Source: a virus. Taken from it: a stretch of 64,000 nucleotides of DNA. The notes beneath the pieces were generated by a model, which searched no databases, was not told the DNA's origin, and saw only the letters and a list, made by a program, of their open reading frames with translations. Shown here piece after piece: positions 4,066-21,136 of this stretch. Made by a program: the position numbers and the translations under genes. The first letter of the stretch is position 1. Every line of letters starts with the position of its first letter. The stretch is taken from the UHGV virus genome UHGV-0311442; one strand, 5' to 3'.

Positions 4066-4512
4066 TCATGTAGCCGGGTTTTCTTCAGCTGTGTCGTCAT
4101 CTGGAACCTCAAAGGTAAGAACGGCATCATCACCAATACAGAAGATCGCATCATCTTCGTTTGCTAATGCTCGTTCTGTTGTATCGAATAACGTCACCAT
4201 AAACGCATTCATCCACGCAGGAGAATCGTCAGCAACGTTAACAGCAATGGGTTCGTTACCTAAGGTGATATCTGCAGCACGTAAATCTTCGGGTTGTAAG
4301 TTCGTTCCGCAGAATTCATTTACAACACCTAAAATGTCACGAAGGTTGTCTTCAGTACCGTCTAACGAAATCAAAATAGGTTCAGACGCTAACACTTCGT
4401 CCGCATCCAAACGGTCGTAATAAACAACCACAGAAGCACCATCAGGTTTCCTGATTTTTGTAATCTCTGTCAGTGTGTTACGACGCGAAGTGGTCGGGGA
4501 CGGGTTTGCCAT
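4066..4512 (-). CDS. Hypothetical acidic protein (148 aa); start trimmed to ATG at 4512
   Basis: The listed ORF start at 4671 sits inside the terminator hairpin of the upstream gene; internal Met chosen; acidic C-terminus. Confidence 0.5.
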   Translation of the reverse strand: MANPSPTTSRRNTLTEITKIRKPDGASVVVYYDRLDADEVLASEPILISLDGTEDNLRDILGVVNEFCGTNLQPEDLRAADITLGNEPIAVNVADDSPAWMNAFMVTLFDTTERALANEDDAIFCIGDDAVLTFEVPDDDTAEENPAT

Positions 4513-4640
4513 AGTGTTGCTAATACGGATTTCGTTTAGAGACAACCGTGAACCGTTATCGTGGTTGATTAAAGCGACCACTAATTCGGCTGAGGCCAGA
4601 CTTAAATCAGGTACGTAAGTAGTCACTAAAACCTCCCAGA

Positions 4641-4688
4641 TCAAAAAAAAATAAAAACACCTACCGCCCATAGAATCGGGCGGTAGGC
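4641..4688 (-). terminator. Rho-independent terminator
   Basis: 10-bp stem CCTACCGCCC/GGGCGGTAGG followed on the minus strand by a T-run of about 17 nt; 27 nt after the stop of 4714..5088. Confidence 0.8.
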
Positions 4689-4713
4689 GGTCATTTTACA
4701 GCTAAATATCAAA

Positions 4714-5088
4714 TCAGACCGTTAGTTCTCCACATAACTCAACGTCGATACCGAACGTCATTCCCACTTCTTGAAGTTTGTTCGCCAGTAGGTGACGATG
4801 ACAAAACTTACCTGCGGGACAATAGCACATCAAAACCAAATCTTCGTGTCTAAGCAACGAGACCAACGTTTCGGCATCGGTATCTAACAGTCGTTCGAGT
4901 TTGTACAAATACTTTACCGTGTATTCACGCTCAGCGGCAGCGTCTTGGGCAGAATTTTTATACGCCATTAGGAAATCCCAGTCGGGGGCGAGTTCCTTTC
5001 GCCCTGACTTCACAGTGATATCCACTGCGTGAAATCCTTTTTGCTTAGCTAACCGCCACTTAGCGAGTTGTAGCGTCCAGATACGCAT
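4714..5088 (-). CDS. DUF488-like protein (124 aa)
   Basis: C-terminal LMCYCPAGKFCHRHLLA resembles the DUF488 signature; ATGA stop/start coupling with the upstream gene. Confidence 0.5.
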   Translation of the reverse strand: MRIWTLQLAKWRLAKQKGFHAVDITVKSGRKELAPDWDFLMAYKNSAQDAAAEREYTVKYLYKLERLLDTDAETLVSLLRHEDLVLMCYCPAGKFCHRHLLANKLQEVGMTFGIDVELCGELTV

Positions 5089-5288
5089 TAGGAACGAGTC
5101 TGCGATTCAGCCATCAGCGCACAACTTTTTACAGCCTGTGCATGAAGCTCTGTACCTGGTGTGTAATCCTTTATACAATCCTGATACAATTCACGTTTTG
5201 TTTCTAGAACACGATTATCGTACTCAGCACTTGCTAGTGCACCTGCGATAAGGATAAAAACTAGAATCGGCAACCAAATTTTCATCAT
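5088..5288 (-). CDS. Small membrane protein (66 aa), paralog A
   Basis: N-terminal TM helix IWLPILVFILIAGALA, then a domain with two Cys (YQDC...KSCAL). Confidence 0.55.
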   Translation of the reverse strand: MMKIWLPILVFILIAGALASAEYDNRVLETKRELYQDCIKDYTPGTELHAQAVKSCALMAESQTRS

Positions 5289-5494
5289 CCATCTCCCATA
5301 CGTTTAGCGTATTCCGTACACGCCATTACTAATTCGGCGTAACGTGGATTATCTACAGTAGTACCTGACATACATTCACGGTAAAGGGTCTCTCTACGTG
5401 ATTCGTCAGACGTCTTAACGTAGAACATCAGCATCGATACAATCAGCGCAGTTGAAACAATTGCCGAGATGATATATCCGTCATTTATTTTCAT
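5285..5494 (-). CDS. Small membrane protein (69 aa), paralog B
   Basis: TM helix IISAIVSTALIVSMLMF, then YREC...MACTEY; same architecture as 5088..5288. Confidence 0.55.
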   Translation of the reverse strand: MKINDGYIISAIVSTALIVSMLMFYVKTSDESRRETLYRECMSGTTVDNPRYAELVMACTEYAKRMGDG

Positions 5495-6011
5495 CTATAA
5501 AACACCATGGTTCTGGATAAAACTCTGTAAGTAAATCAACGTAAAAACTATGTAAATTTGTTAGCGTTATAACACGCCCTAACAAATCATGCTCAGTACG
5601 GTGATAAATCACTACAGAAGTTTCTGATACACGTTTAACATGTATATGGCCCACATCTTTAATGCTCTGATACAATCGTCCGAAATCGACCGTACCGACC
5701 GCATCAGATGAGTCCGTAACCGAGTACCGTATACGTGGGGTTTCATTCCCCACCATCGATAAAAATTCCGCTGCTGTTATTGCATAAACCTGCCCTGAAA
5801 AGGATAGGTGGGGAATTACCTCTTTACGTAATGCACTACTTGAAATCTTAGCAAAGACCTGAGTTTCCTTTAGGCGCATTATTTCGCCCAATTTCTTCAA
5901 GTCTTTGTTATAATTCAGAAAAGCAACCACCTTTTCATCGTGCGTAATCGGCGGCCATTCGACCGCCTTTGCCCGACATTGCCTAAACCAACTCACAAGT
6001 CGCGCTATCAC
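5481..6011 (-). CDS. Hypothetical protein (176 aa)
   Basis: ORF in tightly packed minus-strand operon. Confidence 0.55.
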   Translation of the reverse strand: MIARLVSWFRQCRAKAVEWPPITHDEKVVAFLNYNKDLKKLGEIMRLKETQVFAKISSSALRKEVIPHLSFSGQVYAITAAEFLSMVGNETPRIRYSVTDSSDAVGTVDFGRLYQSIKDVGHIHVKRVSETSVVIYHRTEHDLLGRVITLTNLHSFYVDLLTEFYPEPWCFIDENK

Positions 6012-8087: not shown

Positions 8088-8609
8088 CTACGGGTTAAAA
8101 GGCAGCGGTTTGCAATCCCGCTTTTTCAACTCCTCTACTAACTCAGGTAATGTACACCAACGTTTAAATTGGTTGTTAGCTTTAAAGTGGCTGAGAATCT
8201 CCTCAATGCGCTCAATAGACCACTTCCCTTTCCCTACGTTGTCTAGATCCTTACGTACCGAGAGCGTCTCAATGGTAAACGCTAACTCTGAACTATCCGA
8301 GTGGTCGTACAACAATCTTACTGGTGTTGGTTGGTGTAGCGTAACACGCCACCCTGACTCTTTAGCCCAGTAGACGTCTTTAATTCGACCGCTGACGTCA
8401 ATTACGGAACTGATATAAGTCCAATCACTATCCAGTTTGTTCTTTTCGGCGGTTAATGCATCTTCTAATCGTAAGGAGTTAGGGGACGGAATCCACCAAC
8501 CGTACTTACCGTAATAATCGTCTATTACAGTAATACCTTCGTAATACAAATATTGTGTTTTTGTATTAACGAATATTTCATCGCCAATTAAAACCGCGTT
8601 TATCTTCAT
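8088..8609 (-). CDS. Hypothetical protein (173 aa)
   Basis: ORF; 4-nt overlap with upstream gene. Confidence 0.55.
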   Translation of the reverse strand: MKINAVLIGDEIFVNTKTQYLYYEGITVIDDYYGKYGWWIPSPNSLRLEDALTAEKNKLDSDWTYISSVIDVSGRIKDVYWAKESGWRVTLHQPTPVRLLYDHSDSSELAFTIETLSVRKDLDNVGKGKWSIERIEEILSHFKANNQFKRWCTLPELVEELKKRDCKPLPFNP

Positions 8610-9094
8610 CGTAAGTGCTTCCTGTAAAACAAGTCATAGGCGGTCGAGCTAGATGGATCAATAGAACCTACCAATGGCATAATTTTCTTTTCTGATATTC
8701 CAGTTGCCCAAGCAGCTCGCGCAAAACCTCCGCCAGAACCCGTTGTCCAAACCGCATTTTTATTTATTACAAACGTTTTAAACTTATCTGCTACTAATGT
8801 CAGCCAATGTGTTTCTTTAGCCGTAAAAATGACGATTTGATCGTATATTCGCTCTTTTTCGATAAGATCCGCAAGCAAGGGCTCAACCTTCTTACGTTTA
8901 TCCTCGTCTAAATATTCTTCTATAGCAGCGGTAATCGACATTTTCCAAAACTCGGTGTCCAGTACACGTTCACCTGTATAGAAAACAAACTTGTTTTTGT
9001 GTTTATGCAGTTTGGGCAATTCTTTAACCGTACCAGCATAATCCACAAGTCGGTCAGCTAAAATGTAATCCTTTGTTACCAATACCGTTGTCAT
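8606..9094 (-). CDS. Hypothetical protein (162 aa); start trimmed to ATG at 9094
   Basis: Listed N-terminus runs through the upstream terminator hairpin; ATG at 9094 has GAGG 7 nt upstream. Confidence 0.5.
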   Translation of the reverse strand: MTTVLVTKDYILADRLVDYAGTVKELPKLHKHKNKFVFYTGERVLDTEFWKMSITAAIEEYLDEDKRKKVEPLLADLIEKERIYDQIVIFTAKETHWLTLVADKFKTFVINKNAVWTTGSGGGFARAAWATGISEKKIMPLVGSIDPSSSTAYDLFYRKHLR

Positions 9095-9104
9095 CACACA
9101 CCTC

Positions 9105-9146
9105 GAAGAAAAATAAAAGTACCCTCTCTCCAGACGGAGAGAGGGG
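9105..9146 (-). terminator. Rho-independent terminator
   Basis: Stem CCCTCTCTCC/GGAGAGAGGG, loop AGAC, then minus-strand T-run; directly after the stop of 9153..9422. Confidence 0.8.
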
Positions 9147-9152
9147 CACTGC

Positions 9153-9422
9153 TTAAATCTTACGGCTGCTACCGTAGCAGCCACAACCTGCTGTCGTTTT
9201 CGCAGCACTGACCGGTGCTAACGCAGCCATCGTACCATCGGCCTTAACAATGTGTAAGTTATTTACGCGAGTCAGACCTTTAAAGGTAATCTTCACACCC
9301 TTGCGTAAACTCTTCACATCAAAACCGTCGAGTTTGAGTGTTTTAACCTTTTCAGGTTTACCTTCTTCGTAATAGGAAAGAACATTACCTGCACGTTTTT
9401 CAACAATATAAATCTTACCCAT
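9153..9422 (-). CDS. Small protein (89 aa) in its own promoter-to-terminator unit
   Basis: GGAG 10 nt upstream, conserved promoter-like motif upstream, terminator downstream; perfect 9-bp inverted repeat GGCTGCTAC-C-GTAGCAGCC at 9164-9182 in the last codons. Confidence 0.6.
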   Translation of the reverse strand: MGKIYIVEKRAGNVLSYYEEGKPEKVKTLKLDGFDVKSLRKGVKITFKGLTRVNNLHIVKADGTMAALAPVSAAKTTAGCGCYGSSRKI

Positions 9423-10171: not shown

Positions 10172-10212
10172 CGTAAAAATAAATACTCCCTCTCTCCAAA
10201 CGGAGAGAGGGA
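10172..10212 (-). terminator. Rho-independent terminator
   Basis: Same stem as at 9122-9145 (CCCTCTCTCC/GGAGAGAGGG) plus T-run; after the stop of 10217..10723. Confidence 0.8.
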
Positions 10213-10216
10213 AAGT

Positions 10217-20081: not shown

Positions 20082-20744
20082 TCACGCTTCTAAACCACTT
20101 AAAACGACGGTCTCGAGTAACGCTTTGCCCATCCAGACGTCCAACTCACCATCTAAGCCCCCTAAAGGACGTTTATTCAGTTCGTTGTTGTAATTAAGTC
20201 CGTCAAGGGTTTTATTCGTAATAATTTGCCCAATATGAAGCGGTAGAATAAATCGATTTCGTGCGCTATAAATAAACGAATCACATTCGTAAATTACCAC
20301 ATAGCGCTCGAGATCCTCATCATACTCAACGTGACACTGCGAGCCCGTGTCCCATGCACGCGACAAAACCATACCACGGTCTTGACACATCTTCTCCACC
20401 GACACTTTCGCGGACTCTGCCCATTTATCGTAATTTTTAGGTTGGCCGTTTTCGAAATCGAACCAATCCAGATACTTACCGGGAATATCAAGAAAGTCGT
20501 TCAATTGAAGTTTCGTGTAAGATATCATCACCGCGTCGTTAATATCATTGCGGTTAGTTAACTTTACTCGATACCGACCTTCCGGTGTGGGTGCGCCTAT
20601 TAAAGAAACATCCACTTTCTCAGCCGAAAGCTTTTTACGTACACTGCCGCTATTACAGTAACTAACGAGGTTGAGTAAGTTCTGTCTATGACCAACTTCA
20701 AAATCAATTACAAAAGACATACAAACTCCGCGGGGGTTAATCAC
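20082..20744 (-). CDS. Hypothetical protein (220 aa)
   Basis: ORF. Confidence 0.6.
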   Translation of the reverse strand: MINPRGVCMSFVIDFEVGHRQNLLNLVSYCNSGSVRKKLSAEKVDVSLIGAPTPEGRYRVKLTNRNDINDAVMISYTKLQLNDFLDIPGKYLDWFDFENGQPKNYDKWAESAKVSVEKMCQDRGMVLSRAWDTGSQCHVEYDEDLERYVVIYECDSFIYSARNRFILPLHIGQIITNKTLDGLNYNNELNKRPLGGLDGELDVWMGKALLETVVLSGLEA

Positions 20745-21136
20745 TAATACCCGTATAATGGGTACCGTGCGGTGATCTCATCACCAACATAGAAAGTTAA
20801 ACGTTGAACATTAATACTTTTATTTGCGTAGGGTACAGTTTCTAACGTTACCTTTACACTGGCAGAACAACTACCCGGATCAACAAACTGATATGTACGC
20901 CGTTTGATGTTTACCAAATAGTAGCCGCCTGCCGGGCACAATTCGGTTTTACCGTAATTTACCGTGGCGAACTCATCGTTTTGAACTGCAACAACTGGCT
21001 GGTCGGTAGATTTAAAAACGACGGGTTTATCGCCCGGCACTGTAGGTTCAAAACGACTAATATCGTGCGGTTTAAATTCCGCGAACGCGGAAAATGAAAG
21101 TAACGTTAGAAATAGGGTAATGACAGTTCGTTTCAT
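20744..21136 (-). CDS. Secreted/periplasmic protein with signal peptide (130 aa)
   Basis: N-terminal MKRTVITLFLTLLSFSAFA-EF is a typical Sec signal peptide. Confidence 0.6.
   Translation of the reverse strand: MKRTVITLFLTLLSFSAFAEFKPHDISRFEPTVPGDKPVVFKSTDQPVVAVQNDEFATVNYGKTELCPAGGYYLVNIKRRTYQFVDPGSCSASVKVTLETVPYANKSINVQRLTFYVGDEITARYPLYGY

Follow-up and report, generated by a model that had tools for sequence, protein, structure and literature searches.

Small exported proteins are among the least annotated products of phage genomes. Of those encoded by virulent phages, the few that are characterized, T4 Spackle, T4 Imm, and T5 Llp, serve in superinfection exclusion. A signal peptide, a transmembrane helix, or a lipobox exports them, and their targets, reached from the periplasm or from a membrane face, are the lysozyme of an incoming phage, the entry of DNA, or the receptor. 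Spackle and Llp have been described as disulfide-containing. Together with Cor, these proteins showed how phages protect the infected cell and which envelope machines are touched. Here, we analyzed a stretch of 64,000 nucleotides of the virus genome UHGV-0311442 (hereafter the window), in which two adjacent genes on the minus strand encode proteins of 69 and 66 amino acids (aa), each with a hydrophobic N-terminus followed by two cysteines. We propose that the pair are small exported proteins acting in the envelope of the infected cell, that they are divergent members of an uncharacterized phage family for which phrog_10627 is the catalogued entry, and that they may exclude superinfecting phages. 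Taken as one statement, with the family and the guess at exclusion included, this proposal is in our judgment somewhat more doubtful than not, and its parts are weighed separately below.

The gene of the 69-aa protein occupies positions 5285..5494 (minus strand, stop codon at 5285-5287) and that of the 66-aa protein positions 5088..5288 (minus strand, stop codon at 5088-5090), both as called in the list of open reading frames (ORFs). At 5285-5288, the stop codon of the 69-aa gene and the first ATG of the 66-aa gene lie together in the sequence ATGA, giving a 4-nt overlap, so that the two adjacent, translationally coupled genes reported in a preliminary description of this DNA are found as described. 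A second ATG of the 66-aa gene, 3 nt downstream at 5283-5285, would give a product of 65 aa. It is the start used or annotated in relatives, and GGAG stands 7 nt before it. Both genes sit within a long stretch of minus-strand genes.

Hydropathy finds a hydrophobic N-terminus in both proteins, with Kyte-Doolittle 19-residue maxima of 2.24 for the 66-aa protein (residues 1-19) and 2.32 for the 69-aa protein (residues 8-26). The transmembrane (TM) helix on which the preliminary description had made its topology depend is thus present in sequence terms, although each protein has a helix of its own rather than one in common. In the 69-aa protein, the hydrophobic helix of 20 residues (residues 7-26, YIISAIVSTALIVSMLMFYV; 5417..5476, minus strand) contains no A-x-A site and is predicted to be an uncleaved signal anchor with an N-in/C-out topology, a topology assigned because of homology to lipoprotein and secreted family members. 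Residues 27-69 (5288..5416, minus strand) would then form the periplasmic domain, with Cys41 encoded at 5372-5374 and Cys59 at 5318-5320.

The 66-aa protein starts with MMKIWLPILVFILIAGALASA/EYDN (the slash marks the predicted cut). In this stretch, one Lys (K3), a hydrophobic core of 15 residues, and a Gly at -6, with Ala at both -3 and -1, conform to the textbook pattern of Sec signal peptides that signal peptidase I cleaves. Residues 1-21 (5226..5288, minus strand) are accordingly annotated as a predicted signal peptide with an A-S-A/E signal-peptidase I site, and small residues at -3/-1 are retained in most relatives (ASA, ANA, AKA). This ASA/EY site suggests that the product is probably secreted to the periplasm as a soluble peptide of ~45 aa, its mature domain being residues 22-66 (5091..5225, minus strand; Cys38 at 5175-5177, Cys56 at 5121-5123). 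Hence, the label "small membrane proteins" given in the preliminary description suits the 69-aa protein, which looks signal-anchored, but probably not the 66-aa protein, whose helix looks cleavable. We hold the anatomy and the export of the pair with high confidence.

Each protein has exactly two cysteines, C38/C56 in the 66-aa protein (LYQDC..KSC) and C41/C59 in the 69-aa protein (LYREC..MAC), spaced C-x17-C in both cases. Both are invariant in 45 distinct homologous sequences of the 66-aa protein and in 30 of the 69-aa protein, which bears out the earlier remark that a short domain with two conserved cysteines (YQDC...KSC and YREC...MAC) follows the helix. Across the same 45 sequences, the core CIKDYTPGTELHAQAV[KR]SCALMA of the 66-aa protein is nearly invariant. 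In alignments A1-A3, the two cysteines are the sole invariant columns, and Ala occurs four residues after the second cysteine in at least 90% of the sequences. An aromatic residue three positions before the first cysteine is conserved in the window proteins, as it is in the phrog_10627-like family. The AlphaFold2 (AF2) model of the 66-aa protein, with a predicted local distance difference test score (pLDDT) of 80, consists of two helices, the first up to residue 39 and the second spanning 47-64, with residues 40-46 as the loop, and the model of the family member P0097 (pLDDT 89.5) is a helical hairpin. Each domain is predicted to be a helix-loop-helix of ~45 aa. Its C-x17-C cysteines most likely form a disulfide, introduced by the host DsbA system, that would hold the hairpin together.

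Comparison with two relatives, in which many synonymous changes had accumulated, put dN/dS for the 69-aa gene at 0.13-0.15, for the 66-aa gene at 0.13-0.19, and for the flanking genes at 0.02-0.10. Both genes are under purifying selection. Word-indexed protein searches, which returned close relatives only (≥74% identity), yielded 52 clusters of homologs for the 66-aa protein and 33 for the 69-aa protein (there 70 aa), many of which map to contigs of 220-230 kb. Every close-relative contig examined carries the 70-aa gene next to the 65-aa gene, with the same ATGA overlap of 4 nt, so the conserved homologous pair anticipated in the preliminary description does exist elsewhere.

The two proteins also resemble each other. 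BLASTP of one against the other gave E = 2e-4 over the Cys-bracketed core, and when the family alignments were trimmed of their hydrophobic N-termini and compared by hhalign, P was 5e-4. The value fell to P = 2.7e-5 when gp116 of Salmonella phage SPN3US was added to the 69-aa family. By these sequence measures the paralogy of the tandem genes, proposed earlier from inspection, is above chance, yet modest. Taken one by one, both window proteins have SPN3US gp116 (phrog_28359, 69 aa) as their nearest relative (BLASTP E = 1e-4 and 4e-4), and a tandem duplication of a gp116-type gene would be the simplest history of the pair.

The more distant relatives were first found by inspecting the corresponding locus of SPN3US and of Erwinia phage Asesino, and then by profile searches. 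An exhaustive search of 1.84 billion representative proteins returned 418 clusters at E ≤ 1e-3, of which 104 were at E ≤ 1e-10. The profile behind this search included the window sequences; hence, an independent test was made with a hidden Markov model (HMM) built from 145 domains of the big family only. The 69-aa (E = 2e-4) and 66-aa (E = 0.07) proteins ranked as the top two of the 819 window ORFs (all ORFs of at least 35 aa), the third-ranked ORF scoring 1.4. Compared with the big family by hhalign, the 69-aa protein gave a probability of 90% (P = 1.4e-6), the 66-aa protein 63% (P = 6.9e-5), and the 69-aa protein plus gp116 95.6% (P = 1.2e-8), with a 5-residue deletion in the loop.

Members of this family are 57-214 aa long (median 90), the canonical ones falling in phrog_10627, and share the motif F.EC[LM]..LP.GP..T.YNDWDEVV..C...A. 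Among 185 distinct members, 76% carry a lipobox and 17% a TM helix or signal peptide, and such mixed anchors imply that the domain faces the periplasm. An extra outer cysteine pair, nested as C1..C2...C3..C4, is present in 35% of them, which argues for an intramolecular disulfide between the two inner cysteines, those that all members have. The +2 residue of the family lipoproteins is Asp in 20% and Glu in 19%, figures that we do not take as a sign that they stay in the inner membrane. Profile comparison and synteny together support the window pair as a divergent subgroup. We consider it probable that its two proteins are loop-shortened, non-lipoprotein members of the phrog_10627-like family, the sequence evidence being stronger for the 69-aa protein plus gp116 and weaker for the 66-aa protein alone.

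One genome of each of 185,579 bacterial species contained only 5 loci of the family, against 60 in viral contigs, which makes this a phage family rather than a prophage moron. In large phages, its genes lie in arrays of small uncharacterized genes. When 132 flanking ORFs of 34 non-redundant viral-contig loci were compared with the PHROGs, DNA methyltransferases, exonuclease, helicase, primase, and transposase recurred. Two candidate relatives of the family were tried and rejected. The EexN entry-exclusion lipoprotein model (NF033894) scored 13-18 bits against a cut-off of 33 bits and over the signal region only, the mature sequences giving no match. The DUF1311/LprI lysozyme-inhibitor fold (3gi7) reached a non-significant Foldseek E of 4.3, and there was no Pfam match.

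The locus itself is a syntenic slot, which we define as the interval between the phrog_6965 gene and the DUF488 gene. It is found at this position in the window, SPN3US, Asesino, Stratton, and Cronobacter phage CR5. In SPN3US, the slot holds gp116, with its hydrophobic N-terminus and C-x17-C; gp117; and gp118, a 110-aa protein with a signal peptide (AHA/A) and C-x21-C. In Asesino, Stratton, and pEa_SNUABM_29, a 58-65-aa two-TM protein is followed directly by a signal-peptide two-Cys protein (gp134 in Asesino). In CR5, two overlapping genes encode two-Cys lipoproteins, CR5_125 (lipobox LAGC, canonical motif) and CR5_126 (LTAC, divergent). Given these pairs in the slots of related phages, a pair of exported two-Cys proteins is an old feature of the locus, with an N-terminal anchor that varies by lineage. 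The two-TM genes of the Erwinia phages (4070-4246 of the extracted segment L002, 3257-3433 of L004, and 3242-3439 of L006) stand where the window has its 69-aa gene and hint that the module may always include a small membrane partner.

In SPN3US, gp117 is a paralog of the prohead protease (PMC5694885). The literature assigns no function to gp116 or gp118. The latter has been speculated to be the lost C-terminus of the protease paralog gp117 (PMC5694885), which is a poor fit with its signal peptide. Protease-like genes do recur beside family members, and a functional link is possible. The S80 prohead-protease paralog, gp117 in SPN3US (L001 4185-4670), lies between or before the two-Cys genes in SPN3US-type phages. 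In KoPa-4-like Pseudomonas phages, an SprT-like metalloprotease gene (gp94 of KoPa-4, L007 2908-3390) overlaps the lipoprotein gene from upstream, and the window has an HslV-like ORF at 8606..9208 (minus strand).

The source of the window appears to be an undescribed jumbo phage of ~225 kb, distantly related to SPN3US. Window proteins are 57-65% identical to proteins of SPN3US (Seoulvirus) and Asesino, and a stretch of 3 kb is 88% identical to part of a circular 'plasmid' of 221,873 bp from the clinical Escherichia coli strain 98232 (L019, NZ_CP173450.1 52758-58738). Among 50,697 phage records, the window had no megablast match, and tblastn of both proteins against the same records gave no match even at E = 10. 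Close protein homologs lie on 220-230-kb contigs in many Salmonella, E. coli, and Shigella isolate assemblies; it looks as if the phage persists in these isolates or contaminates them, and a carrier state is possible. The RefSeq annotation (PGAP) of the strain 98232 replicon includes the 65-aa gene and leaves the upstream 70-aa gene (L019 2763-2975) as a gap.

We suggest the following course of events. The 69-aa protein would be inserted in the inner membrane by its uncleaved signal anchor, with a C-terminal domain of ~43 aa in the periplasm, and the 66-aa protein would be exported by Sec and released as a periplasmic peptide of ~45 aa. Because the genes are translationally coupled, the two products would be made in a fixed proportion, and a complex of an anchored with a soluble subunit is conceivable. 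The pair might then bind a conserved envelope component, or the device with which an incoming phage pierces the cell wall, and so block secondary infection. Superinfection exclusion is a possible function that we put forward tentatively, by analogy. It is placed first, and modulation of the host envelope second, because the characterized small exported proteins of virulent phages other than spanins are exclusion factors.

A broader idea, equally speculative, is that phrog_10627-like proteins in general, the window pair included, are widespread unrecognized envelope effectors of virulent phages, namely disulfide-stapled hairpins held at the periplasmic side of a membrane by interchangeable anchors (a lipid, a TM helix, or none), whose binding partner would be some conserved part of the Gram-negative envelope or of incoming phage tails. 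If so, the jumbo phages would use a two-protein complex made of an anchored subunit and a soluble or second anchored one, and phages from ~30 kb to 360 kb would share a new way of excluding superinfection or taking over the envelope.

Several points weigh against this proposal. What speaks for an exclusion role is analogy, and the family includes no experimentally characterized member. No match for the pair or the family was obtained in Pfam, NCBIfam, PADLOC, or PDB sequences, and fold searches, Foldseek among them, returned nothing significant. The window proteins are not directly matched by PHROG HMMs (E ≤ 0.1). They have C-x17-C instead of C-x21-23-C and lack the best-conserved loop motif of the family (GP..T.YNDWDEVV), and because this signature is absent from the window subgroup, the pair may have changed target, partner, or function. 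The cleavage and topology calls are rule-based (hydropathy, -3/-1 residues) and stand as predicted features, and for the 69-aa protein the positive-inside rule favors neither orientation. Finally, in the AF2 model of the 66-aa protein, Cys38 falls where helix 1 ends and Cys56 midway along helix 2, so that a tight hairpin as modeled would not obviously bring them together and an intermolecular disulfide may be the alternative.

The function that competes most closely with exclusion is modulation of the host envelope. The hairpins would inhibit or activate a periplasmic or inner-membrane protein of the host, candidates being a sensor kinase (as MgrB and SafA act on PhoQ), a peptidoglycan hydrolase, a protease, or an envelope-stress sensor, and the envelope would be kept intact or re-programmed through the long cycle of a jumbo phage. 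The anatomical evidence serves this reading as well as it serves exclusion. Conservation of the loop motif across phages of Pseudomonas, Xanthomonas, Erwinia, Cronobacter, and Salmonella points to a conserved target rather than to a variable phage receptor; the family genes stand among early or accessory genes; and protease-like neighbors recur (SPN3US gp117, the SprT-like gene of KoPa-4-like phages; PMC5694885). However, neither sequence nor fold shows similarity to MgrB, SafA, or any known inhibitor, and the same data fit exclusion equally. We regard modulation as a doubtful, if serious, candidate.

The preliminary description had also considered a lysis-control pair, and a holin/antiholin or spanin-like module comparable to T4 RI/T or Rz/Rz1 now appears improbable. 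Adjacent overlapping genes for an inner-membrane-anchored and an exported small protein bear a superficial likeness to two-component spanins and antiholins, and the wider family consists mostly of small lipoproteins, as o-spanins are. Neither window protein, however, has a lipobox, C38/C56 and C41/C59 being their only cysteines. Periplasmic parts of ~43-45 aa are too short to span the periplasm, there is no coiled coil, and the conserved folded hairpin is unlike the proline-rich o-spanins. A holin or antiholin fits no better, as there is a single TM helix with its C-terminus predicted outside, no adjacent endolysin, no sequence match, and, in the 69-aa protein, none of the charged cytoplasmic C-terminus of holins. 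In the window, the neighbors are the DUF488 gene and uncharacterized genes without a lysis-family match. At the 34 family loci, no endolysin, holin, or spanin occurs in the 25 most-matched of the 93 neighbor families, and few upstream neighbors have the N-terminal TM helix expected of an i-spanin. These neighborhoods argue against a role in lysis; an accessory function in the infected cell's envelope would be in keeping with them.

A structural part, either in a phage-made membrane structure (in the membrane or the lumen of the early lipid vesicle with which Chimalliviridae-type jumbo phages surround their injected genome) or in virion morphogenesis, is very unlikely. Relatives of the SPN3US-type jumbo phages, to which the source of the window is itself related, form membrane-bound early vesicles (PMC10541120), and the pair lies ~0.4 kb upstream of virion and tail-fiber genes. 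A terminator-like hairpin, however, separates the transcription unit of the pair from these structural genes, and a Sec signal peptide sends a protein to the periplasm and not to particles. The wider family occurs in phages of 20-100 kb outside the Chimalliviridae, mostly as lipoproteins, and the papers searched do not mention either gp116 or gp118 of SPN3US as a virion component. As for chance ORFs or decaying remnants with a coincidental cysteine pattern, the shortness of the two ORFs, their lack of direct matches to any PHROG or Pfam model, and the omission of the 70-aa homolog by PGAP in the strain 98232 record give this reading almost no weight against dN/dS values of 0.13-0.19 with many synonymous changes, ORFs intact across dozens of independent contigs, invariant cysteines, and significant profile links to the 418-cluster family.

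The genes around the pair belong to the same coupled chain. Upstream, a 176-aa ORF (5481..6011, minus strand) runs 14 nt into the start of the 69-aa gene; it has no Pfam or PHROG match, and homologs of 173-175 aa hold the equivalent position in relatives. Downstream, the 124-aa DUF488-N3a gene (4714..5088, minus strand; Pfam PF22751, E = 4e-12; phrog_2450) overlaps the TAA stop of the 66-aa gene with its ATG (TAATG). The DUF488-N3a protein is conserved in 288 phage records, Vibrio and Pseudomonas jumbo phages among them, and has weak PADLOC matches to candidate defense proteins (PDC-M45C, E = 4e-5). A consensus scan found, 3′ of this gene, an intrinsic-terminator-like hairpin at 4658..4689 (minus strand), with a 13-bp stem of which 9 pairs are GC, followed by a T-rich tail, and by its sequence it probably closes the transcription unit of the pair. 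Beyond it lie a DUF7941 virion protein gene and a 1190-aa tail fiber gene. The DUF7941 ORF as called (201 aa, 4066..4671, minus strand) begins inside the hairpin; since relatives are called at 186-187 aa, its true start is probably further downstream.

Two further terminator-like hairpins, nearly identical and ~1 kb apart, lie upstream of the gene block of the pair at 9122..9145 and 10186..10213 (minus strand). They read CCCTCTCTCCGT.TGGAGAGAGGG, followed by a T-rich tail, and suggest a reused terminator or a regulatory hairpin. The idea that the region acts as a non-coding RNA was dropped, Rfam having given no match of note. Elsewhere in the window, a 47-aa ORF at 42094..42237 (minus strand; MISVKHKKAIFAVVIAVVLGC...) with a lipobox-like VLGC and three cysteines matches phrog_8574 (E = 3e-23) and is another small exported phage protein, possibly a lipoprotein. 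A 130-aa protein at 20744..21136 (minus strand) has a classical signal peptide (..SFSAFA/EF) and two cysteines and matches phrog_5248.

Set beside known systems, the pair is most like the uncharacterized phage proteins with which it shares a locus. SPN3US gp116 has the same length class, hydrophobic N-terminal helix, C-x17-C spacing, and slot right after the phrog_6965 gene, but is only ~30% identical; moreover, SPN3US has one gp116 copy, with gp117 between it and gp118, whereas the window has two tandem copies and neither a gp117- nor a gp118-type gene in the slot. Members of the phrog_10627 family (SPN3US gp118, Asesino gp134, CR5_125, KoPa-4 gp95) likewise have an export signal followed by a Cys-bracketed helix-loop-helix, share the Ala four residues after the second cysteine, and occupy the jumbo-phage slot. 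Unlike them, the window pair is devoid of the lipobox, the C-terminal beta extension, and the P.GP..T.YNDWDEVV motif.

With T4 Spackle (gp61.3), T4 Imm, and T5 Llp, the likeness is in design and lifestyle only, all being small exported proteins of lytic phages, and neither a PDB profile search nor fold comparison connects the pair to Spackle or Llp. The lambda spanins Rz/Rz1 also combine adjacent or overlapping genes, a type-II inner-membrane protein with a small exported one, and functionally important cysteines, but the window pair differs in having no lipobox, coiled coil, or lysis cassette and too short a periplasmic reach. The bacterial PhoQ regulators MgrB and SafA resemble it in a single N-terminal TM helix with a short periplasmic tail, and MgrB has two conserved periplasmic cysteines; on the absence of database matches they are not homologous, their tails are much shorter, and they form no helical hairpin. 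EexN/TrbK-type lipoproteins of conjugative plasmids recall the small lipoproteins of the big family, with sub-threshold NF033894 matches, yet these are confined to the lipoprotein signal peptide and give no evidence of homology.

The pair is thus a new shortened variant of a catalogued but uncharacterized phage family, a modest advance in annotation for a familiar design. What the comparison adds is that the pair, SPN3US gp116 (phrog_28359), and phrog_10627 can be united in one superfamily of at least 418 sequence clusters, in which a domain that, to judge from its mixed anchors, faces the periplasm stands behind interchangeable anchors and of which jumbo phages keep two copies side by side. 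Such a family is both large and experimentally tractable.

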